64,000 bases of DNA. Origin: Escherichia virus TH57. Of the stretch, positions 2,082 to 61,188 are shown piece after piece; positions within the stretch are counted from its first letter, which is position 1, and each line of letters begins with the position of its first letter. Both the position numbers and the translations under genes were made by a program. The stretch lies in the sequence record MT446422.1; one strand, written 5' to 3'. The notes below the pieces were generated by a model. That model had not been told where the DNA came from, searched no databases, and saw only the letters and a list, made by a program, of their open reading frames with translations.

Positions 2082-5000
2082 TTACATTTACCTGTGTAGG
2101 ATTAACCGGGTCTCTTGGATTACCAATATCATCTTTAAGACGTTGGTCAACTAATGCTCTCCAATTTGAGAATGTAACAGCCGACTGGTCAAACAGTGGA
2201 CTATATTTTCCACGACGTTGTGACGGTAACAACCCATAGAACATGGAGAAATCATTCTCGGCATCATAATCGGCTGGTAATGGGAATGGTTGACCAGCAT
2301 TAGGAGCGATGTTATATATTGCTTCACCTGTGATAGGGTTTTTCTCAATAGTACCATCAACACCAATCACTGCAACTCGGTCATTCCATTCTGACGGAAT
2401 ACCAGAAGACCATCTATAGTTACTTAATTTATTAATGATTGTCTCGGTGTGTTTAAGAGTCAAACCAACGTTAACAAACATTGTCAGCAACGTAATACCG
2501 ATGAATCCAAATCCAACCGGGTGAACGAATCGCAAAACATCATTACGATAACGAGAGGTTGGAAGGTTTGACTTAATTGTCATTACGTAATAAGAGCGGT
2601 TACGATTAATATAATCGATGTTGTTGCTCAACAACTCTTTACCACGAACACCTTGCACAATCATCCCCTTGAATGAGGTTCTTTCTGATTTAATTTCTTG
2701 CCCAACAATAAAACGTCCCAGGAGGTTATGAATAGTAATACGCCATCTTAATTTACCGTCTTTATAATCGCGCTCCATATAAGTCACATTACTGCGACCA
2801 GTTGCAGTATAAATGGTTTGGCCTACAATGTCTTCACTGATATTATCAGATTCAACTACGATATCATACTCGGTTCCGTTCTTGGATTCGATGTCAATTT
2901 CAACATCTTCATTATACAGCAATTTGAACAGGAATTTATAAGACGCTTCTGTGCCTTTTGTTGCCCAAAAATCAGACTGTCGGGCCTGGAAGAATCGAAC
3001 AGCTTCGTCACGTTTTTCCTTGGAGAGGTAAATGTTGCGTTTGTACATTTCACTCCAGAGGTATTCCCATGCATCTTCCTCGCGTGGATATTGGTTACGA
3101 ATAAGATTCAACAGGTTGTTATAGTATGTACCAGAACCATCACTGATGAACTGCAAATAATATTCACAGAATTTTTCAAATTTACTATCCTGCAAAAGAT
3201 AGCTATCCGGAACCATCTTCGTTAATAATGGCTGCAGGTCAGGGTCTTTTTCCTTATTCTCATTTTCTGGAGTCCATGGAATATCATGTTCCTGGTTTTG
3301 CAGTTCGGCCATAAGCATAATTTCTTTTGGCTTCCAGATGATACGCACTTCATCGCGCACGCGATAGTCAAACTCAAAATAGCCAATTAATTCCCCAGTA
3401 TTTTTATGAAGCATAATCCCGGAGGCATATTTTTTAAAGCCATTGAATTCGATGTTAGGTGCAGTAATCGTTACTTGACCTTTGTTCCAATATTCATGCA
3501 CGATACGTTCCGGGGAAGTTCCACTAAATGTATCGATGATATACTGGTAAAGAACATCGTTATAGACGACCATTGCTCGGTCTGAAGTCGTAATCCAGCA
3601 ACGAGTATCGTCACGTCTTGACCAGTTAAAGAACGGCTCTGCATAGTAAGTCATACGCCCAGGTTTGAACTCTTCAAAGCCAGAATCTTCGCCAGCTCTG
3701 AAACTCATCATCAGGTAATGCTTATCATGTATCCATTGTTCATCGTAAACGTATTTGACTGCTTCGTTAACTTCATCAGGATATTTAAGAGGAAGTTCAG
3801 TATCAGGCTCAACCGAATATTTGAAGTTGCTGGAGCTAAAGAATACTTCGATGCCATCAGTTGACATGCTTGCATAACCATGTTCGATTCGGCGGCGTTC
3901 TTCTTCTGTATTACCAAAAACTCTCGTCCATGTATCAGTAACAGGGTCTAATTTATAAACACCTTTATCCAGAGAGTCAACAACGTTTTCAGGTTTAGTT
4001 GGGTCTTGTCTTTCTTCTTTAACTTCACCTGTAATTAATGCAAACGTATGGCCTTGAACTGAATCCATTTTATAGCAAACTGCTTTAGGGTTCGCCGTAA
4101 TTGTACTGTAACCAGTTTCAAATAGTTTTTCACCAAAAGTCGGAGACCCTGGGGTTGTATCAATCGGCGCATCAGAGGTTTTTGCTTTATATACACGACC
4201 ACGAGCCGCAACATAAATGAACTCATCCGAAACCGTAATAGCTTCTGCTATTTGCGAAATATATGCCGGAAGTCTTGCATAGTTACCGAAGATTTCAATA
4301 TCAAATCCAAGGTTAATATCCGAACCGACTTTAGCAAATGTAATATCTTCAGAACTGAATCGAACATCATCTGCAGACCATCTTATATCGCTTGATTGGC
4401 GACCATAGAATATACGGTCATACCCCAAAACGTAAGTTGTGGTATCAGTCTGGTAATATACAGTTCTTGATACAGGGTTACCGACCCGCTCGTTAAAGAG
4501 TCTTATGTAATACCAGTTCTGGCCTTTGTCATTGGAGACTTTAACCATCGGCTGGAATCGTTCGAACAAATAAAGAACTCCACCGAGTTCAGCAAGCATC
4601 GTGCGGTTTTGGTCAACACAAACTGCTTGAATCGGTCCCTGGATTTCGTGATATTGGTCTTCTTGTAAAACATAGTTCGAGATTGAAGACAAATGAGAAT
4701 ATGCAGAGGTCCATGTAAAGTCTTCGGTCATCAATGAGGCCATAATAGCATCATTGTTAAAGTTGATATATCTCTGATTGTTATTGGTGAATTTTTCTTC
4801 AATGAATTTATTAGCCAAACTAAATTCGCGCATATGTTCAAAAGTATACGCGTTTGTTGCAAAGGTTTCAAATTCTTCGGTGTATTCCCAATCAGACCGT
4901 TCGAAGCCCATTGCCGCAACAGACACGCGCATCTGATAACTTGTTAACGGACGAATATATTCCTGCTCGAACCATTCATTGTCTGCGGTATAACCAAGGT

Positions 5001-5169
5001 CACGCCAAATTAAATCTCTAGTTGGGATGTGTACTCCATTTTCTGTGATTTGCGCAATCTCCACAAAATAGTAAAAGTTGGAGCCTACATCATCCCATTT
5101 AATACTAACTTGGTTGGCAGATAGTTTATCAATCCGCAAGCTAGTAACAGAAGGGGCTTTAACGGTCAT
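2074..5169 (-). CDS. 7: baseplate wedge initiator gp7
   Basis: ORF track 1031 aa (T4 gp7 about 1032 aa); synteny gp6-gp7-gp8. Confidence 0.9.
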   Translation of the reverse strand: MTVKAPSVTSLRIDKLSANQVSIKWDDVGSNFYYFVEIAQITENGVHIPTRDLIWRDLGYTADNEWFEQEYIRPLTSYQMRVSVAAMGFERSDWEYTEEFETFATNAYTFEHMREFSLANKFIEEKFTNNNQRYINFNNDAIMASLMTEDFTWTSAYSHLSSISNYVLQEDQYHEIQGPIQAVCVDQNRTMLAELGGVLYLFERFQPMVKVSNDKGQNWYYIRLFNERVGNPVSRTVYYQTDTTTYVLGYDRIFYGRQSSDIRWSADDVRFSSEDITFAKVGSDINLGFDIEIFGNYARLPAYISQIAEAITVSDEFIYVAARGRVYKAKTSDAPIDTTPGSPTFGEKLFETGYSTITANPKAVCYKMDSVQGHTFALITGEVKEERQDPTKPENVVDSLDKGVYKLDPVTDTWTRVFGNTEEERRRIEHGYASMSTDGIEVFFSSSNFKYSVEPDTELPLKYPDEVNEAVKYVYDEQWIHDKHYLMMSFRAGEDSGFEEFKPGRMTYYAEPFFNWSRRDDTRCWITTSDRAMVVYNDVLYQYIIDTFSGTSPERIVHEYWNKGQVTITAPNIEFNGFKKYASGIMLHKNTGELIGYFEFDYRVRDEVRIIWKPKEIMLMAELQNQEHDIPWTPENENKEKDPDLQPLLTKMVPDSYLLQDSKFEKFCEYYLQFISDGSGTYYNNLLNLIRNQYPREEDAWEYLWSEMYKRNIYLSKEKRDEAVRFFQARQSDFWATKGTEASYKFLFKLLYNEDVEIDIESKNGTEYDIVVESDNISEDIVGQTIYTATGRSNVTYMERDYKDGKLRWRITIHNLLGRFIVGQEIKSERTSFKGMIVQGVRGKELLSNNIDYINRNRSYYVMTIKSNLPTSRYRNDVLRFVHPVGFGFIGITLLTMFVNVGLTLKHTETIINKLSNYRWSSGIPSEWNDRVAVIGVDGTIEKNPITGEAIYNIAPNAGQPFPLPADYDAENDFSMFYGLLPSQRRGKYSPLFDQSAVTFSNWRALVDQRLKDDIGNPRDPVNPTQVNVNE

Positions 5170-5197
5170 TAAGATTCCTTAAAGCCTCCGAAGAGGC

Positions 5198-7156
5198 TTA
5201 TAATGTAATTGGTTCTAAATTAATAGTCGTATACTGTGGACGAAGGTCATTTTCGAATACGATAAGCGAACCGTCTTTTGTATAGATATTGTCCTGGACT
5301 GGACCTGCATACAATTCGATTGATTGCACTTCAAAACGTTCAGAAGATAAACCAATTGCAGCGATGTCCCAGAAAATATAATCAGACCAATAATCGATTT
5401 CGCCGATTACAAAGTATTGAGTCTGGTCAGCTGGTGCAGCCATCTTATTAAAGTCAGTACCTGTATAAGGTTGAATATTTGTATTAAGCTGAACATCACC
5501 TGGACGGAACGGACCAATGACCATTTTACCATCACCAGATGAGTTGCGGTCAGTCGCTACAATACGGACGTTATATGAGGTAACAGTATCACTTTGGTTA
5601 GTTGGAACAAATTCGAATTCGCTTGATTCCACAGACCTATTAGTATATTGATTATAATATTTAATGCCTGATTCTGGAGTCTTAAAGAAGTTCAAGACTT
5701 CACGAACCATTGTCACCGTTGCAGACGAACCCAAAATACTATGGTCAGTATTATCCACATAAGTGAGCATTTTCGATTTAGCAAAACTGTGGTTAAACAA
5801 TTCAACTTCATCGATATAATAGCGGTCAATCTGGTTAATGATTTGTGCTTGCAACCACTGTTCAGATTCCTGTAATTTATTCAGCGCATAAGACACTTTG
5901 ATATTGTGTTTAAGGAACAAATAATCAGGAGAAATAACTGATGGTGTAATTGTTGATACGTTGAACTCACTAAGGTAGTTTTTGATGTCCTCACGCTGCA
6001 CTGCGGTGAGATACAAGCCCGATTTAGGCTTAACTGATATAAACGCATACCCAGGTTTATTTGCGTCCGTAAACGTCTGTACGGCTTGTACGATTGAGCC
6101 AAATCTTTCTGATACGAAGGTATCATAATCAGTCCCGGTGACAGCACGCATCTGCGCTTCACGTTTAACTACAGCCAGTTCGCGGATTCGTTCAATATCT
6201 TCCGGGTCACCGCCACCATCAGCTCCAACGTAATCTTTATCGTTATTATAGTTTTCGGTAATCTTGTCAACAGTGATATAAGACAAGGAGTCAGCATAGC
6301 TGAAGTCAACTGCACCATTTGCATCAGCCCCTGATGTGCGAAGATATTCGATAACAATTGTTGAATCCTGTACGGGTTTCAGTCCACCAATATAGTTTGC
6401 TTCCAATACGCCACCGGCAACAGATTTGGTCGATTCACCTTCACCGAAGAAGAATTCGGTATTACCATCAACAGTTTCACGCATATAGAAAATAGTGGAC
6501 GTTGAACCAGCATGAACCATTGATTTGTTTGTCCAGTCAGTCCACTCGATGCCGTTCACAAAAAGCTTAACTTCTTTTCGGTCAATATCCGGGTCACGAA
6601 TAAGAATAGGCTGTTTCGGGTCATACAAAAGTTCGGTACGAATAATGCGGCCTTGTGCAAGGGATACAATCGGCAGATATTGGTTATTAATGTCTTTTAC
6701 CGCGATTACATTATCCGTTGTGACAAACATATAAGGGTCAGCTGATGTATCACGAGCATAAGCCAGGAACTTGGTCCCGCGTGGAATTTCAATATTCGAT
6801 GGTTGGAGAGCATGAGAACATGTTAGCATAACCGAAGTCTTTGCGGCCGAACGTGAAGATGGGAGATAACCATTATCCTGTGCAGCCTGAACAACCGAAG
6901 ACCTTAGGTTTGCAGTTCCGATAAATGATTCATAAACTGCTGTATTAGCAAACTGCTGCATATACAATGTATTATATGCAAGCATATCAATCAGGATATT
7001 CATTCGCGAACCTACGAAATCATAATCCTTAAATTCGTCCTGGCTTGATAGCCAGTCTATAATATTCTTTTTAATTTCTTCAAACGTAGCTCCCACAAAT
7101 ACTTTTGGGATAGCGTTAACGGTTCTTGTTAATTGGTAATTCGTAGGAGTAGCCAT
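5198..7156 (-). CDS. 6: baseplate wedge protein gp6
   Basis: ORF track 652 aa (T4 gp6 about 660 aa); synteny. Confidence 0.9.
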   Translation of the reverse strand: MATPTNYQLTRTVNAIPKVFVGATFEEIKKNIIDWLSSQDEFKDYDFVGSRMNILIDMLAYNTLYMQQFANTAVYESFIGTANLRSSVVQAAQDNGYLPSSRSAAKTSVMLTCSHALQPSNIEIPRGTKFLAYARDTSADPYMFVTTDNVIAVKDINNQYLPIVSLAQGRIIRTELLYDPKQPILIRDPDIDRKEVKLFVNGIEWTDWTNKSMVHAGSTSTIFYMRETVDGNTEFFFGEGESTKSVAGGVLEANYIGGLKPVQDSTIVIEYLRTSGADANGAVDFSYADSLSYITVDKITENYNNDKDYVGADGGGDPEDIERIRELAVVKREAQMRAVTGTDYDTFVSERFGSIVQAVQTFTDANKPGYAFISVKPKSGLYLTAVQREDIKNYLSEFNVSTITPSVISPDYLFLKHNIKVSYALNKLQESEQWLQAQIINQIDRYYIDEVELFNHSFAKSKMLTYVDNTDHSILGSSATVTMVREVLNFFKTPESGIKYYNQYTNRSVESSEFEFVPTNQSDTVTSYNVRIVATDRNSSGDGKMVIGPFRPGDVQLNTNIQPYTGTDFNKMAAPADQTQYFVIGEIDYWSDYIFWDIAAIGLSSERFEVQSIELYAGPVQDNIYTKDGSLIVFENDLRPQYTTINLEPITL

Positions 7157-16485: not shown

Positions 16486-16560
16486 GGCCCTTTAGCTCAA
16501 TGGGAGAGCTGTCAGCTCATAACTGATAGGTAGCTGGATCGAAACCAGCAAGGGCCACCA
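16486..16560 (+). tRNA. tRNA with CAT anticodon (Met, or Ile if lysidine-modified), CCA encoded
   Basis: Manual cloverleaf: acceptor GGCCCTT/AAGGGCC, D-stem GCTC/GAGC, anticodon loop CTCATAA, T-arm GCTGG-ATCGAAA-CCAGC, 3' ACCA. Confidence 0.8.
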
Positions 16561-16564
16561 AACG

Positions 16565-16641
16565 CGGGGTGTAGCTCAATTGTATAGAGCAACGGTCTTC
16601 TAAACCGTAGGTTGTGGGTTAGAATCCCACCACCCCGACCA
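16565..16641 (+). tRNA. tRNA-Arg (anticodon TCT), CCA encoded
   Basis: Manual cloverleaf: acceptor CGGGGTG/CACCCCG, D-stem GCTC/GAGC, anticodon stem ACGGT/ACCGT with loop CTTCTAA, T-arm GTGGG-TTAGAAT-CCCAC, 3' ACCA. Confidence 0.85.
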
Positions 16642-16656
16642 ATTACCGAGGATATT

Positions 16657-16896
16657 ATGGTTATTAGTGAATCATATGCAGTTATGGATATAACCAACAA
16701 CGAGCTGGTTTATAGCTTTGATGAGTTTGATGAAAATGATAAACAAGTCCCATGGTTTGCATTAACTGCTCCACCTGAGCATAATAAATATCTAAGTTTC
16801 CCGACTCGCAGATTAGCAACAAATTTTATGGAATTCAATGACCTTGATTCCAATTATAAGGTTGTTAAAGTCAAATTAGCTATTACAATTGAATGA
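16657..16896 (+). CDS. hypothetical protein
   Basis: ORF track 16612..16896 overlaps tRNA-Arg; first ATG past the tRNA is at 16657. Confidence 0.45.
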   Translation: MVISESYAVMDITNNELVYSFDEFDENDKQVPWFALTAPPEHNKYLSFPTRRLATNFMEFNDLDSNYKVVKVKLAITIE

Positions 16897-17195
16897 GAAA
16901 CCGGGTCGCTACCGGTAAGTCGTCGGACTGATGTTCCCTGTTTAAGGACTGACATTAATAAATCTTTACGATTTGTTGATGTCCCCTTATATCACAGCTG
17001 AAACGGCGCACCGAATTATCGATTCGAGGAAATATCTTTGCCGTAAGCCGAGTAGCGTTTTTGACGGAACGTTCGGATATGGTCGAGATATGGCCTTTTA
17101 AAAATATTGAGTAGCGTCAACTGCTTAATAACCGGGTTCGAATCCCGGCGTTTCGTACAAACACTTGCCTTGCAGGTGGAACCCCGACAAGGTAT
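16897..17195 (+). ncRNA. candidate small stable RNA(s) with a tRNA-like T-arm (analogous to T4 species 1/2 RNAs)
   Basis: About 300 bp without a supported ORF right after the tRNAs; contains CCGGG-TTCGAAT-CCCGG T-arm-like hairpin near 17136-17152; followed by a terminator. Confidence 0.3.
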
Positions 17196-17225
17196 AGCCC
17201 CTCCCGAAAGGTTGGGGCTTTTTTA
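17196..17225 (+). terminator. rho-independent terminator
   Basis: AGCCCC...GGGGCT hairpin followed by TTTTTT. Confidence 0.55.
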
Positions 17226-17259
17226 TACCCCGAATAAATTTGAAATTTTCTTCAAAAAG

Positions 17260-17292
17260 TAGTGTACATCCGAATTGACCGGGTGCATAATG
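17260..17292 (+). promoter_or_regulatory. early promoter cassette (type B, CATAATGATTCCATACTGAGTTAC leader)
   Basis: -35 GTGTAC, 18 bp spacer, -10 CATAAT; same cassette recurs at about 18148, 18676 and 37240. Confidence 0.5.
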
Positions 17293-17342
17293 ATTCCATA
17301 CTGAGTTACACACTGAATCAAACAAAACTTTGGAGAAATAAA

Positions 17343-17768
17343 ATGAACTTTCTGACCCTGACCTCTGCATTCTCTGTTACCCGCATCACTAACAAAATGG
17401 TTGCTGACGAAGTATGTGAAATCTGCATTCGTGAAGATGCACTTATCCATCTGACTTCAACCCAGATTGTTGCCATCGCCAAGTCCCTTAATTCTGAACT
17501 GAAGGTAAACACCAAACAGTCAAAAGAGTCCATCATTGAATTAATCCAAGCTGAAATGATTGAATTCCCAATTGAAGAAGTTAAAGAAGAAAAAATCCAG
17601 TCCAAATCTGGTAATGCTCGTGACATTTGCTTCCAGGCATTTGCAGAAATTGATATGGCAGATGGTGCAGCTCGTCGCGCTCTGATTGATGTTCTGGTTA
17701 ACACCCATGATATCAAAAAGACTGTTGTTCAGTCCTATGCTTCTAACTTCCGCAAAGCTCAAAAATAA
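17343..17768 (+). CDS. hypothetical protein, paralog of 18222..18665 (shared C-terminal domain)
   Basis: ORF track 17262..17768; ATG at 17343 after promoter cassette and GGAG RBS; C-terminus MADGAARRALIDVLV...SYASNFRK. Confidence 0.55.
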   Translation: MNFLTLTSAFSVTRITNKMVADEVCEICIREDALIHLTSTQIVAIAKSLNSELKVNTKQSKESIIELIQAEMIEFPIEEVKEEKIQSKSGNARDICFQAFAEIDMADGAARRALIDVLVNTHDIKKTVVQSYASNFRKAQK

Positions 17769-17778
17769 TTGAGAAAAG

Positions 17779-17815
17779 TGTTTTACTTCCAGGTGGGATA
17801 GTGTATAATTATCCC
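17779..17815 (+). promoter_or_regulatory. early promoter cassette (hybrid A/B)
   Basis: -35 GTTTTAC, -10 TATAAT flanked by GGGATAG / TATCCC, followed by type-B leader ATACTGAGTTA. Confidence 0.5.
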
Positions 17816-17851
17816 ATACTGAGTTAACAAATAAAACACTGGAGAATAAAA

Positions 17852-18148
17852 ATGTTTAACGCACCTGCATGGCACGCTACCCAAGCTCAAGAAGAAAACA
17901 AAGCAATCATTTCTGCTAAAATTGAAGCTCAACTGAATGAATTGTGCGAAACTGCTTCTGAAGAAGTTGTTGCAATCATCAAACAGTATCCTGCATCCAA
18001 CTATTCCCTGGCATGCATCAAAACAGAAATGGTTAACTTGTGGCGCAAGAATAAGAAAACTTTCTTAGGTATGCAGTACCAGGCAATCGCGTCTGCGGTA
18101 GTAAACATGTATGACTTTGAAGTTTATTTCCCAACTTCTGAAAATTAA
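17852..18148 (+). CDS. hypothetical protein
   Basis: 98 aa ORF after a promoter cassette. Confidence 0.5.
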   Translation: MFNAPAWHATQAQEENKAIISAKIEAQLNELCETASEEVVAIIKQYPASNYSLACIKTEMVNLWRKNKKTFLGMQYQAIASAVVNMYDFEVYFPTSEN

Positions 18149-18221
18149 TGTGTACTTTGGAATTTAACTAAGACATAATGATTCCATACTGAGTTACCAA
18201 ATAAACAAACGGGATAATAAA

Positions 18222-18665
18222 ATGAAAACTTCAAAACTGGTTAAGTACATTAAACTGGCATTAAACAACTCTTCTGAAGCTGAAGCACAATCCGCAGCAC
18301 GTATGTTCTTCAAACGTCTGACAGCTGAAGGTATTTCATTTAACCCGGCAGTATTTGGTATCACTCGTGGCGAAGCTGCTAAACTGGCAACGCTGGCAGG
18401 TAAAATTTTTAAAGGTCTGAATGATGGACAGGTTAAACCAGAAGTTAAACCTACTCCTAAAGCTGAACCAAAAGCTGAACGTAAGGCACCTAAACGCTCC
18501 GGCATGAGCAACAAAGATTTATGCTATGATATGTTCAAAACTGTTAATATGTCTAATGGTGCTGCCCGTAGAGCTGTTATTGATATGATTGTGCGTGAGT
18601 TTGGATTCAACAAAGCATCAGTTCAGTCTTATGCTTCCAACTTCCGCAAAGAATTTGAAATTTAA
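18222..18665 (+). CDS. hypothetical protein, paralog of 17343..17768
   Basis: C-terminus MSNGAARRAVIDMIV...SYASNFRK; promoter cassette upstream. Confidence 0.55.
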   Translation: MKTSKLVKYIKLALNNSSEAEAQSAARMFFKRLTAEGISFNPAVFGITRGEAAKLATLAGKIFKGLNDGQVKPEVKPTPKAEPKAERKAPKRSGMSNKDLCYDMFKTVNMSNGAARRAVIDMIVREFGFNKASVQSYASNFRKEFEI

Positions 18666-18671
18666 TTAAAA

Positions 18672-18707
18672 AGGGGGTATACAAGCCCCCTGCTTTAAGG
18701 CATAATG
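18672..18707 (+). promoter_or_regulatory. terminator hairpin fused to a type-B early promoter
   Basis: AGGGGG-TATACAAG-CCCCCT hairpin; loop GTATAC lies 18 bp upstream of -10 CATAAT. Confidence 0.45.
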
Positions 18708-18747
18708 ATTCCATACTGAGTTACCAAATAAAACACTGGAGAATAAA

Positions 18748-19053
18748 ATGAAATTCATCATCAACCTGGCACTTGTTGACTTTGATAAAACTGGTAATTT
18801 CGCATCTGCTGAAAATATGATTCGTAACACCAAGTTCAAAGTGCAAGTCCAACAGGCGGTAGCAAAAGAGTTCTTTACTGATAAATTAACTAACATTGTT
18901 AATCACCTGAATGTACAAGTTAAATTCACTCGTGAAGCGGAAACTACTGTTGCATTTGATTTTGACTGCCAATACCATGATGAATATGTTCGCCGCATCC
19001 TGGATATTGTGTCTGATGAACTTTACTATGGTGTGCAGGAAAACAAAATCTAA
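18748..19053 (+). CDS. hypothetical protein
   Basis: 101 aa ORF after terminator and promoter cassette. Confidence 0.5.
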   Translation: MKFIINLALVDFDKTGNFASAENMIRNTKFKVQVQQAVAKEFFTDKLTNIVNHLNVQVKFTREAETTVAFDFDCQYHDEYVRRILDIVSDELYYGVQENKI

Positions 19054-19125
19054 ATTAGTGCTTTAATGGGAACATGATAGTATGTTCCCTGGATAATAAA
19101 ACATTAACCAACTGAAGGAAATACC

Positions 19126-19719
19126 ATGAATACTTTAAAGAAACTTGTTGAATTCATCCGCTCCAAACTGGGTACTGCAATGGCAAAAAACCTGTCTATT
19201 GAAGACCAATATACTCAAGCGGCGTCTACCCTAATTGACAAGATTACTGAGCTCCAGACTGCCCACGTTAAGTCTGTTAATGAAGAAAAACGCATCCGCG
19301 AGTTAGCGAATGAAAAAGACCAACTCGCCGCTTCAAAAGAGCGTGAAATCCGCAAACTGATTGCTGATGGTGCAGATGTCCAGGTCCATGCTAAACTGGG
19401 TCTCCTGTATCGCCGCACTGCTAAACAACTTCGTAAGAAGGCAGATGATTATGTTGAAATGCGTAATGAAATTAAATTGAAAGTTAAAGAGCTAGATGAC
19501 TCTCGTCAGGAACTAGCTGTTAAACTGGAATACATCCGCGAAACCCGTAAAGTATCTGCCCTAGGTATTGCGACTGCAGATGATGTTGTTGAAATTGCTG
19601 CATTGACTAAGATTGATATTGAAGACACTCTGATGCGTGTTGAAACCTTCAAAGGCCCACAGGTTGGTGTGGATACCACGTCCGCTGACATTGAAGAATA
19701 CATCAATTCACTTAAGTAA
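19126..19719 (+). CDS. coiled-coil protein (weak resemblance to PspA/IM30-type helical proteins)
   Basis: 197 aa, charged and helical-looking; hairpin-embedded promoter upstream. Confidence 0.5.
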
Positions 19720-19762
19720 GATAAAAGGGGGCTTTGCCCCCTAATTGGGAGAGGAGAAAATT

Positions 19763-20317
19763 ATGAGCTTATATACTGACCTTATATCAAATGTAGACTG
19801 GTTTGGCGGTAGTGGCCTTGCTACCGAAACTAATACAGTTCTTTATAGAATCCGTGGCGACTTGGGTTATTCCAATGATTTCTTAAGAAGAACAACAAGT
19901 CGCGGTGATACTACAAAATTGCCTTTTATTTTTGCTTTAGCTGAAGACCTTTCTTTCGCAGATGCCTTGGAAATTATTGATGTAAATCTGGGTATTCAAC
20001 GAGTGGAATTCGCTGGACTACGTTATTCAGTATATGCTTTAAACGAGAGCGATGATTGTATACTTCTTAATATGGCAGATGATGATTACCATTTAGTATG
20101 TTATGTGGCGCTAGAAAATGGTGATGTATTTGGAATGGTTGACCGTCGGCCAGCTTATACTGATATTAAAAATTATGATAAAGCTGAGCTTCTTGATTTG
20201 ACGGCTGAGTACACATTAGAAAGTCATAAACAAAAACGAAAGCTTAATCGTTTTATTGCTGAATGTCGTGAATATGCTAAGGGGGTTCAAAATGCGAACG
20301 TTATATCTGCCAAGTAA
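19763..20317 (+). CDS. hypothetical protein with C-terminal FIxEC motif
   Basis: ORF track 19745 uses TTG; ATG at 19763 after GGAGAGGAG; C-terminus ...LNRFIAECREY. Confidence 0.5.
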   Translation: MSLYTDLISNVDWFGGSGLATETNTVLYRIRGDLGYSNDFLRRTTSRGDTTKLPFIFALAEDLSFADALEIIDVNLGIQRVEFAGLRYSVYALNESDDCILLNMADDDYHLVCYVALENGDVFGMVDRRPAYTDIKNYDKAELLDLTAEYTLESHKQKRKLNRFIAECREYAKGVQNANVISAK

Positions 20318-58473: not shown

Positions 58474-61188
58474 ATGCAAGAATTTTATTTAACTATCGAA
58501 CAAATCGGTGACAATCTGCTTGAACGATACATTGACAAGAACGGTCATGAACGTGTTCGTGAAATCCCTTATGCTCCATGCTTGTTTATGCATGCCCGTG
58601 AAGACCAGGCTGCAAAGTATACAGACATCTATAATAAAGGTTGTGTGAAAAAAGAATTCGATTCCATGCGTGATGCATCCCAGTGGATGAAGCGAATGAA
58701 TGACATGGGTCTCGAAGCTATGGGTATGGATGACTTTAAACTCGCATACTTGTCCGACCGTTACCCGCACGAAATCAAATACGATTCAAGTAAAATCCGT
58801 GTGGCTAACTTCGATATCGAGGTGACATCTCCTGATGGGTTCCCTGAGCCGTCTGAAGCACGTCACCCTATTGATGCCCTGACGCACTATGATTCGGTAG
58901 ACGATAAATTCTATGTCTTTGACCTTTTGAGCTCACCATACGCCACTGTGGAGCAATGGTCTATCGATATTGCTGCTAAGCTGCAAGAAGATGGCGGCGA
59001 TGAAGTCCCCGAAGAAATCCTGGAAAAAATTGTTTATATGGCCTTCGATTCAGAAGAAGAAATGCTCCAGCAGTATTTGGTATTCTGGAACGAGAAAACT
59101 CCGGTTATGTTGACTGGTTGGAACATCGAGAAGTTTGATATTCCATATATCTACAACCGCCTTAAAAATGTGTTTGGTGAAGCTACGGCAAAACGTCTGA
59201 GTCCACATCGTCGTACAAAAGTTAAGGTCATTAACAACGGATTCGGTGAAGAACAAGAAATCATTCAGATTCTGGGTATCTCTGTTCTGGATTATCTGGA
59301 CCTGTATAAAAAGTTCAGCTTCACAAACCAACCATCTTATTCGTTGGATTATGTTGCAGAATCTGAGCTGGGTGTTGGTAAACTCCCGTATGATGGTCCG
59401 ATTTCTAAACTGCGTGAATCAAATCACCAACGGTATATTTCTTATAACATCATCGACGTTTATCGTGTTGTGCAGATTGACCGTAAGCGACAGTTTATTA
59501 ACCTAAGCCAGTCAATGGGTTATTATGCAAAAATGCAGATTCAGTCTGTATTCAGCCCAATCAAAACTTGGGATGCGATTATCTTTAACAGCCTGAAGAC
59601 GCAAAACAAAGTCATTCCGGAAACCAAATCGCATGTTCGCCAATCGTTCCCTGGTGCATTTGTTAAGGAACCGATTCCGAACGCATACAAATACGTTATG
59701 AGCTGTGACTTAACATCTCTGTATCCGAGCATCATCCGACAGATTAACATCAGTCCAGAAACGATTGCCGGGTCATTTGCACCTGCGCCGATGTACGAAT
59801 ACATTGCAGGAACTGCTGACCGTCCATCTGATACATTTAGTTGTGCTCCAAACGGTATGATGTATTTTAAAGATGTTGCGGGTATTATTCCGACAGAAGT
59901 CACCAAGGTGTTTAATCAGCGTAAAGAACACAAAGGCTATATGCTTGCGGCTCAACGTAATGGTGAACTGATTAAGGAAGCTCTGCGTAATCCAGGAACT
60001 GGTACAACCGAGCCTGAAGTTGATTATCGTTATGACTTTGATGACAATATGAAAACAACCTTGCATGGTCTGAATCAAACAGTCCTGAATGGTATGTTGT
60101 ACAAAGCGCAGATGGAAGAAGTTGCTGGTATGACCGCACAGATTAACCGTAAACTGCTTATCAACAGTTGTTATGGTGCTCTGGGTAATATCTGGTTCCG
60201 TTACTTTGACCTGCGAAATGCAACCGCGATTACATCTTTCGGGCAACTTGCATTGCAGTGGATTGAGCGTAAAGTTAACGAATATTTTGATAGTGTTTGT
60301 GGTACAAGTGGTGAAACATATGTATTCTATGGCGATACTGACTCCATTTATATCCAGTGCGATAACCTGATTAAAAAGGTTGGTGGCGAATCTAAATTCC
60401 GCGATACAAACCACCTGGTTGACTTCATGGACAAGTTTGCGAAAGACCGTCTGGAACCAGCAATCGATAAAGCTTTCCGTGAACTAGCTGAATACATGAA
60501 CAACAAACAGCACCTTATGTTTATGGACCGTGAAGCGATTGCATGTCCTCCACTTGGTTCTAAAGGTGTTGGTGGATTCTGGACGGCGAAGAAGCGTTAT
60601 GCTCTGAACGTGTACGATATGGAAGGCACACGATATGCTGTTCCGAAACTGAAAATCATGGGTCTGGAAACTCAAAAGTCGAGCACACCAAAAGCATGTC
60701 AGAAAGCTCTGAAAGAATGTATCCGCCGTATGTTGCAAGAAGGTGAAGAATCTCTGCAGACGTACTTCAAGGAATTCAACAAGGAATTTAATGAGCTTAA
60801 TTACATGACCATCGCAGGTGTATCATCGGTTAACAACATCCAGAAATATAATGAGGGTGGTTTCCCTGGATTTAAGTGTCCGGCTCATATCAAAGGCGTG
60901 CTTGCTTACATGCGTGCAACCAAAGGGCTGAAGACTGTTCCACAAATCATGGAAGGGGAAAAGGTGTATGTGCTTCCTCTTAAAGTTGGTAACCCGTTTG
61001 GCGAAACCGTGATTGCGTGGCCATCAGGGATTGAACTCCCGATTGAAATTCGTGACCAAGTCTTGCAGTGGATGGACTACAACACACTGTTCCAGAAGAC
61101 TTTTGTTAAGCCATTGACAGGGTTCTCTGAAGCAGCTAAGGTTGATTACGAGAAAAAAGCATCTCTTTTTGATATGTTTGACTTTTAA
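58474..61188 (+). CDS. 43: DNA polymerase gp43
   Basis: 904 aa; MQEFYLTIEQIGDNLLERYIDKNG... and VANFDIEVT exonuclease motif match T4 gp43; uninterrupted. Confidence 0.95.
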   Translation: MQEFYLTIEQIGDNLLERYIDKNGHERVREIPYAPCLFMHAREDQAAKYTDIYNKGCVKKEFDSMRDASQWMKRMNDMGLEAMGMDDFKLAYLSDRYPHEIKYDSSKIRVANFDIEVTSPDGFPEPSEARHPIDALTHYDSVDDKFYVFDLLSSPYATVEQWSIDIAAKLQEDGGDEVPEEILEKIVYMAFDSEEEMLQQYLVFWNEKTPVMLTGWNIEKFDIPYIYNRLKNVFGEATAKRLSPHRRTKVKVINNGFGEEQEIIQILGISVLDYLDLYKKFSFTNQPSYSLDYVAESELGVGKLPYDGPISKLRESNHQRYISYNIIDVYRVVQIDRKRQFINLSQSMGYYAKMQIQSVFSPIKTWDAIIFNSLKTQNKVIPETKSHVRQSFPGAFVKEPIPNAYKYVMSCDLTSLYPSIIRQINISPETIAGSFAPAPMYEYIAGTADRPSDTFSCAPNGMMYFKDVAGIIPTEVTKVFNQRKEHKGYMLAAQRNGELIKEALRNPGTGTTEPEVDYRYDFDDNMKTTLHGLNQTVLNGMLYKAQMEEVAGMTAQINRKLLINSCYGALGNIWFRYFDLRNATAITSFGQLALQWIERKVNEYFDSVCGTSGETYVFYGDTDSIYIQCDNLIKKVGGESKFRDTNHLVDFMDKFAKDRLEPAIDKAFRELAEYMNNKQHLMFMDREAIACPPLGSKGVGGFWTAKKRYALNVYDMEGTRYAVPKLKIMGLETQKSSTPKACQKALKECIRRMLQEGEESLQTYFKEFNKEFNELNYMTIAGVSSVNNIQKYNEGGFPGFKCPAHIKGVLAYMRATKGLKTVPQIMEGEKVYVLPLKVGNPFGETVIAWPSGIELPIEIRDQVLQWMDYNTLFQKTFVKPLTGFSEAAKVDYEKKASLFDMFDF

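Follow-up and report, generated by a model that had tools for sequence, protein, structure and literature searches.

Paired early genes of a T4-like phage end in a shared domain with a predicted helix-turn-helix-like fold

What is the small domain in which two early genes of Escherichia virus TH57 both end, and to what target might it bring the proteins that carry it? The two genes, A (17343..17768, + strand, 141 amino acids (aa)) and B (18222..18665, + strand, 147 aa), lie in a 64,000-nucleotide (nt) stretch of sequence record MT446422.1, which as a whole we call the window. Early accessory genes of T4-like phages are mostly unexplained, and several of the solved ones are host-takeover or anti-defence factors. 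By megablast, positions 16800–19800 match about 770 T4-like phage records, led by the Gaprivervirus group (SP18, VR20, VR25, VR26, CJ20 and PSD2001; 95–98% identity over nearly the whole stretch), and on sequence grounds the window belongs to the T4-like Gapriverviruses. The pair sits in the variable tRNA-to-e region and reads in the early direction (+ strand), with the phage tRNA genes on one side and a homolog of T4 e.6 (19126..19719) on the other. Below we describe A and B as paralogs whose pairing recurs in unrelated phages, whose shared domain is predicted to adopt a helix-turn-helix (HTH)-like fold and whose common target, tentatively, may be DNA.

Gene A (phrog_9997) is a homolog of SP18gp148 and VR7ORF147c, and gene B (phrog_18416), which encodes a basic protein with an isoelectric point (pI) of 10.0, is a homolog of SP18gp147. 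Compared by BLASTP, the two proteins align over their C-terminal ends alone, with 32 of 73 residues identical (44%) at an expect value (E) of 1e-18, and their N-terminal halves are unalignable. A preliminary description of this DNA had called them paralogs with unrelated N-terminal halves and a common C-terminal domain, and both this and the open reading frames (ORFs) and peptides it quoted proved exact. Its further statement that the domains are near-identical holds for the last helix, VQSYASNFRK (10 of 10 residues), and for the motif GAARRA[LV]ID, and fails for the domain as a whole, which measures about 50–55 aa and is about 45–48% identical between the two. A tblastn search and a hidden Markov model (HMM) scan of all six frames found exactly these two copies in the window; an apparent third at 60694 lies inside DNA polymerase at chance level and was rejected. 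Codon differences from phage SP18 are mostly synonymous (synonymous to non-synonymous, 9:4 in A and 10:4 in B), as expected of real coding genes.

In both proteins AlphaFold2 (AF2) models the shared domain as three confident helices. The domain of A (17604..17765, + strand; aa 88–141) is basic, with a pI of 9.4, and has helices at residues 92–100, 108–122 and 126–140; that of B (18510..18662, + strand; aa 97–147; pI 9.0) has them at 97–105, 113–127 and 131–145, with a predicted local distance difference test (pLDDT) score of 95–98. Averaged over the whole proteins, pLDDT is 84.5 for A and 88 for B. Helix 1 follows the pattern K-x-x-C-[FYW]-x-x-F and helix 2 A-R-R-x-[VI]-I-D-x-[LI]-V; after a turn of [G/N/D]-[FLI], helix 3 reads x-K-x-x-V-Q-S-Y-A-S-N-[FY]-R-K. 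Across 24 diverged domain sequences, the only invariant residues are C and F in helix 1 and V-Q-S-Y in helix 3, with the helix-3 S and R nearly so. From helical periodicity, the helix-3 residues Q, S, S, N, R and K would point away from the core. In our reading of the alignment, with the turn Gly set as position 9, helix 2, the turn and helix 3 fit the classical HTH spacing, with hydrophobic residues at 4, 8, 10, 15 and 18 and Gly, Asn or Asp at 9.

The domain was matched by no family in Pfam (E ≤ 1–5), NCBIfam or PADLOC, and searches of Protein Data Bank (PDB) sequences with whole A, whole B and both N-terminal profiles returned nothing significant. A broad profile of the domain found as its best PDB sequence match the homeodomain 2da3, at a marginal E of 0.009, and a BFVD fold search retrieved uncharacterised family members only. 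PBP_like matches in three members (E 0.005–0.05) were judged to be chance. Three PHROGs with no assigned function cover the domain, namely 9997 for A-type proteins, 18416 for B-type proteins and 17275 for a 71-aa stand-alone form, and the literature searched contains no mention of these genes' PHROG ids or locus tags. The preliminary description had likewise not recognised the domain; it named assignment to a characterised housekeeping family as the outcome that would overturn it, and no such assignment emerged, because sequence searches linked the domain to no curated family and to no solved structure. As modelled, the domain has a tri-helical HTH-like fold that is not structurally new: it is probably a small HTH-like bundle of an ordinary kind, in a new family confined to phages. 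We file it on the predicted structure as a new tri-helical HTH-like family and not as a homeodomain or BEN member.

How widely is the pair shared? With the profile of the domain, a full HMMER search across 1.84 billion representative proteins gave 15 matches, 13 of them real and 2 repeat-protein artefacts, and a further search with the domain alignment added only one new short protein. The carriers comprise further T4-like phages, PY100-like phages and Rosemountviruses, and all appear to be of virulent type. A strict-motif scan across 185,579 bacterial and archaeal genomes yielded a single pattern match, rejected by tblastn, and by that scan the family appears absent from cellular genomes. In T4 itself, the 63 kb scanned with the HMM, which included the syntenic motA.1 and e.7/e.8 positions and left out the other 62% of the genome, held no convincing homolog (best match, 11 bits over 15 residues). 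A 710-aa protein from the representative search consists of about 10 tandem units of ~45 aa (EDWNNGLSEEEILEKYNIKKSTLQTYLSQARKRGIEVK) that match the helix 2–turn–helix 3 profile weakly, and resembles a tandem HTH array.

A-type and B-type genes are neighbours in Gaprivervirus. They recur in Morganella phage MP1 (Gualtarvirus) as gp0119 (B-type) and gp0117 (A-type), in reversed order with a small gene between them, and in a diverged T4-like metagenomic contig at 55–63% identity. The pair is also carried by unrelated PY100-like phages, namely Erwinia phage RF1 and several complete-length 45.7-kb metagenomic contigs, whose terminase shares 52% identity with its counterpart in Yersinia phage PY100. 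In these phages A and B form a small island on the strand opposite to the flanking operons (RF1 4716–6188; PY100-like phage L011 6001–7266), with an HNH endonuclease gene between them in RF1 and a 44-aa ORF in L011. On a 1-kb contig, the gene after an A-type gene is a paralog whose N-terminus is of a third kind. A-type genes stand without a B partner in the T4-like Acinetobacter phages 133 and ZZ1 and in some 40 Rosemountvirus genomes (one example is brunost_11, a protein of 185 aa with a divergent domain ending in RVIQSYMSYYRN), and the N-terminal module of B is limited to Gaprivervirus, MP1 and RF1. Gapriverviruses hold a third paralog outside the window, a bare domain (SP18gp274, 71 aa, phrog_17275), at 164095–164310 of SP18 (GQ981382), directly upstream of motA and at the position of the unrelated T4 motA.1. 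Judged by its sequence distribution, A+B is a conserved, horizontally mobile pair and not a local duplication peculiar to the TH57 genome.

The promoters speak to when the genes would be expressed and how they may have moved. A and B each follow what, from its motifs, is their own early sigma-70-type promoter, in line with the preliminary description, which had placed a promoter cassette before each gene. The cassette of A (17262..17342, + strand) contains GTGTACA, a 17-nt spacer, CATAAT (17286–17291), the leader GATTCCATACTGAGTTAC and a GGAG ribosome-binding site; that of B (18150..18221, + strand) contains GTGTACT, a 17-nt spacer, CATAAT (18174–18179), the same leader and a GGGA ribosome-binding site. 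The promoters proper are TGTACA-17-CATAAT at 17263–17291 and TGTACT-17-CATAAT at 18151–18179, and in both genes the leader GATTCCATACTGAGTTAC is followed by an A-rich stretch, GGAG or GGGA, and ATG. Upstream of A, a terminator scan located an intrinsic terminator at 17202..17227 (+ strand; stem TCCCGAAAGGTTGGGG, then a T run) that closes the tRNA/small-RNA transcription unit, so that gene A requires a promoter of its own.

The 22-nt core of the cassette is present in six copies on the + strand of the window (17287, 17805, 18175, 18702, 37267 and 37855) against none expected, and full-length Gaprivervirus genomes carry 9–13; it is present too in Morganella and Providencia Gualtarviruses. In SP18 the same cassette precedes the third paralog, with a leader closest to that of gene A. 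Conservation of the cassette reaches beyond the −35 and −10 elements into the transcribed leader, over about 35 nt (CCATACTGAGTTAC...GGAG; GATTCCATACTGAGTTACCAAATAAA...GGAG), for which recombination homogenisation, RegB-type processing at GGAG and a regulatory site are candidate causes. Binding of the proteins to their own cassette is neither supported nor excluded: the co-occurrence of cassette and domain in Gaprivervirus and Gualtarvirus is the same lineage signal, and the domain is present without the full cassette in Rosemountvirus, Acinetobacter and L011-type phages.

In RF1 and Acj133 the A-type promoters are similar to that of Gaprivervirus (GTGTACA / ...TTGA...GGGTG / −10), which suggests that the A-type gene probably travelled together with its promoter. 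Their spacers are alike in unrelated phages (ACCCAATTGAATGGGTG-like; window 17262–17291, RF1 about 4640–4670, L006 about 3150–3190), and in the window the same spacer yields a second possible promoter, TTGACC-16-CATACT (17275–17302). A loose inverted repeat in the RF1 spacer, ACCCA-N6-TGGGT, was considered as an operator and is too weak to call.

Mobile promoter/stem-loop (PeSL) cassettes of T4-like phages were reportedly described by Arbiol et al. in 2010, and the surroundings of the pair have their features: a repeated sigma-70-like promoter, a stem-loop, and insertion/deletion junctions at the cassette relative to close relatives. Between A and B lie a cassette and a 98-aa ORF that is not part of the pair (17782..18148, + strand; ORF 17852..18148, phrog_27242). 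The segment 17852–18174, which comprises this ORF and one cassette, is missing from SP18 and EAWsc9, where A and B are immediate neighbours, and both junctions fall within the repeated cassette; the alignment presents it as a clean case of PeSL-like insertion of a gene through its cassette. Downstream, the pair is bounded by a stem-loop with the next cassette (18672..18747, + strand), in which the stem-loop at 18672–18691 overlaps the −35 element, CATAAT lies at 18701–18706 and the promoter would drive the ORF at 18748..19053. In the passages of Comeau et al. 2014 (PMC4122927) on PeSL units, repeated early promoters, often with a stem-loop, flank variable ORFs in the hyperplastic regions of T4-like phages; the about 35-nt leader is not found in those passages. 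The window cassettes are like these units in flanking small variable genes, in the ORF inserted exactly at cassette boundaries and in the stem-loop over the −35. They differ in that the Gaprivervirus/Gualtarvirus cassette keeps its about 35-nt leader as well, and the likeness concerns the gene context, not the A and B proteins.

In front of the common domain the two proteins diverge completely. The N-terminal module of A (17343..17582, + strand; aa 1–80) is acidic (pI 4.7) and combines three short strands with a helix–extended loop–helix (QIVAIAKSLNSELKVNTKQSKESIIELI) that, in a comparison with Rho_N and SAP-like domains, may resemble the Rho N-terminal domain. That of B (18222..18407, + strand; aa 1–62) is helical, with AF2 helices at 2–15, 19–35 and 49–59, and contains the motif LALNNSSEGEA, which we take to resemble the motif of DUF2786. 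The DUF2786 profile (PF10979) was faintly matched by 2 of 22 members, both B-type, with a best E of 0.043 that falls below threshold, and B is not assigned to that family. A Lys/Pro/Ala-rich linker follows (18408..18509, + strand; aa 63–96; pI 10.1), predicted to be disordered, with pLDDT 57–59 and without secondary structure; one GenBank record labels a B ortholog 'H15 domain'.

What, then, might the domain do? Host sigma-70 RNA polymerase would transcribe A and B from their separate early cassettes as soon as infection begins. The invariant basic helix 3 would act as a recognition helix and bring A, B and the bare-domain paralog to the same target, most likely double-stranded DNA, where the differing N-terminal modules would give each protein a different activity. 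The disordered tail of B could add non-specific DNA affinity, and the bare-domain paralog beside motA could compete for the same site; the biological role would then be in early regulation or host takeover. DNA appears the likeliest target because of the HTH pattern, the charge and the structural neighbours of the domain. We hold this reading tentatively, judging it just short of even, and several observations weigh against it. The hhalign probability against homeodomains is just 1.8%, no Pfam HTH family was matched, no candidate DNA site was identified, and the helix-3 Asn, which would be the base-contacting residue, is D, S or M in some members. An invariant exposed helix also fits a protein–protein interface equally well.

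That last point leads to the strongest rival, in which the domain is a protein-binding adaptor: helix 3 would dock A, B and the stand-alone paralog on one conserved host protein, such as RNA polymerase or sigma, a nucleoid protein or a defence protein, and the N-terminal modules would be effectors or inhibitors in host takeover or counter-defence. The accessory, mobile, own-promoter character of the genes fits this idea, as does the location of the third copy among RNA-polymerase modifiers. Basic charge and the HTH pattern, however, favour nucleic acid, and we found no sequence or profile link to known anti-defence or RNA-polymerase-binding proteins, PADLOC being blank. Any host target would also need very wide conservation, since A-type proteins occur in Acinetobacter phages as well. 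We consider such an adaptor possible but somewhat unlikely. A match to T7 Gp2 (E 0.48) was set aside as noise.

The co-conservation of the pair in four phage lineages raises a second alternative, namely that the domain is a dimerisation module forming A–B heterodimers or homodimers, with function residing in the N-terminal modules. Dimerisation would explain why A and B are kept together, and the conserved surface is identical in both proteins. Against this, Acinetobacter phages 133 and ZZ1 and the Rosemountvirus genomes keep A-type genes without B, the domain exists as a stand-alone protein, and its AF2 model is a self-contained monomeric bundle at high pLDDT, all of which make a dedicated dimerisation module rather improbable. 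Least probable is that the domain binds RNA, be it the 5′ leader of the cassette or neighbouring phage tRNAs and small RNAs, and makes these proteins post-transcriptional regulators: the genes adjoin the tRNA cluster in Gaprivervirus, Gualtarvirus and Acinetobacter phage 133, a highly conserved leader is common to many cassette transcripts and the N-terminal module of A has its possibly Rho-like element, but the tRNA linkage is lost outside T4-like phages.

Returning to recruitment of A, B and the bare-domain paralog to a common target, likeliest DNA, we can also frame a broader proposal. The three proteins may constitute an undescribed mobile early module of virulent phages, in which an HTH-like domain directs two to three effector-bearing proteins to one DNA or host-protein target for host takeover or counter-defence, and which moves between unrelated families with its promoters. 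We think it unlikely that this holds in full.

The surroundings of the locus contain further traces of exchange and of structured RNA. Upstream of the pair, the window encodes tRNA-Met (16486–16560) and tRNA-Arg (16565–16641) only, and SP18 has Met-Asn-Arg (window 16486–16641 versus SP18 stretch 3609–3842). The alignment breakpoints between the two fall inside tRNA genes, which suggests that tRNA-Asn was lost or gained by recombination between tRNA genes. The + strand segment 17096–17232 is non-coding and strongly structured, with a minimum free energy of −47.7 kcal/mol (z −3.9), and ends in the terminator described above, which is the last hairpin of its fold. It contains a hairpin like a tRNA T-arm (CCGGGTTCGAATCCCGG), has no match with ARAGORN or Rfam, and lies downstream of tRNA-Arg where T4 has rnaC/rnaD (stable RNA species 1 and 2).

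What is new here is the conserved mobile pairing of A with B and the three-paralog set, modestly interesting and easily tested. The family is tractable: its putative recognition helix is sharply conserved, its N-termini are modular (A-type, B-type and a third type, beside the bare domain), and A and B have stayed paired through transfer between T4-like and PY100-like phages. Should DNA prove to be the target, a phage-specific branch would be added to the homeodomain-like HTH folds, and the question becomes what sequence is read by an invariant helix in phages whose hosts span Escherichia, Morganella, Erwinia, Salmonella and Acinetobacter; a host protein as target would point to a conserved vulnerability. 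Either way, this is a bounded finding on accessory genes and no new kind of system.

Several known systems invite comparison. TAL-effector repeats can be set aside: B-type sequences such as AVIDLLCQRYGFGKATVQSYASN resemble RLLPVLCQAHGLTPEQVVAIASN and a narrow profile matched the TALE structure 3ugm at a summed E of 2e-18, but the individual repeats score about 0–5 bits (E >200), the sum is inflated by identical repeats, the matches vanish with a broader profile, and helix 3 of the AF2 model passes through the position of the TALE base-recognition loop. A temperate repressor or Cro-type HTH protein is not indicated either, given the lack of an HTH match in Pfam, virulent-type carriers and the rejection of the one match in the cellular-genome scan. 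Closer in structure is the homeodomain-like tri-helical HTH of engrailed, Oct-1 and ATBF1, as the helix 2–turn–helix 3 geometry of the predicted domain superposes on solved homeodomains. An hhalign comparison with an alignment of seven homeodomains (pairwise E 0.027) places the helix-3 Y, N and R on homeodomain W48, N51 and R53. The A/B domain differs in being phage-only and in its invariant residues (helix 1 Cys and Phe, helix 3 V-Q-S-Y), and it has no match to the Pfam Homeodomain profile.

The last three helices of the BEN domain (Drosophila Bsg25A/Insensitive; BEND6, BANP and NACC1), about 55 residues, also superpose on the model, at 4–15% identity. BEN domains, however, have 4–5 helices and about 90–100 aa compared with about 50 aa in A and B, and no Pfam BEN match was found. 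We do not file the family under homeodomains or BEN because the hhalign probability is so low and the PDB match marginal.

In function rather than in fold, the nearest counterpart is MotB of T4, an early, non-specific DNA-binding protein with KOW and OB-fold domains that remodels H-NS–DNA complexes and whose DNA binding has been demonstrated (PMC7827196). Its C-terminal domain is conserved and its N-terminal domains differ among phages (categories 1, 2 and 4) (PMC7827196). The folds of MotB and of the A/B domain are unrelated, and the proteins have no sequence similarity. Like A and B, for which DNA binding is a prediction, MotB is an early accessory protein of Tevenvirinae that joins a constant C-terminal domain to swapped N-terminal domains, and by analogy it is the closest functional counterpart of the pair.
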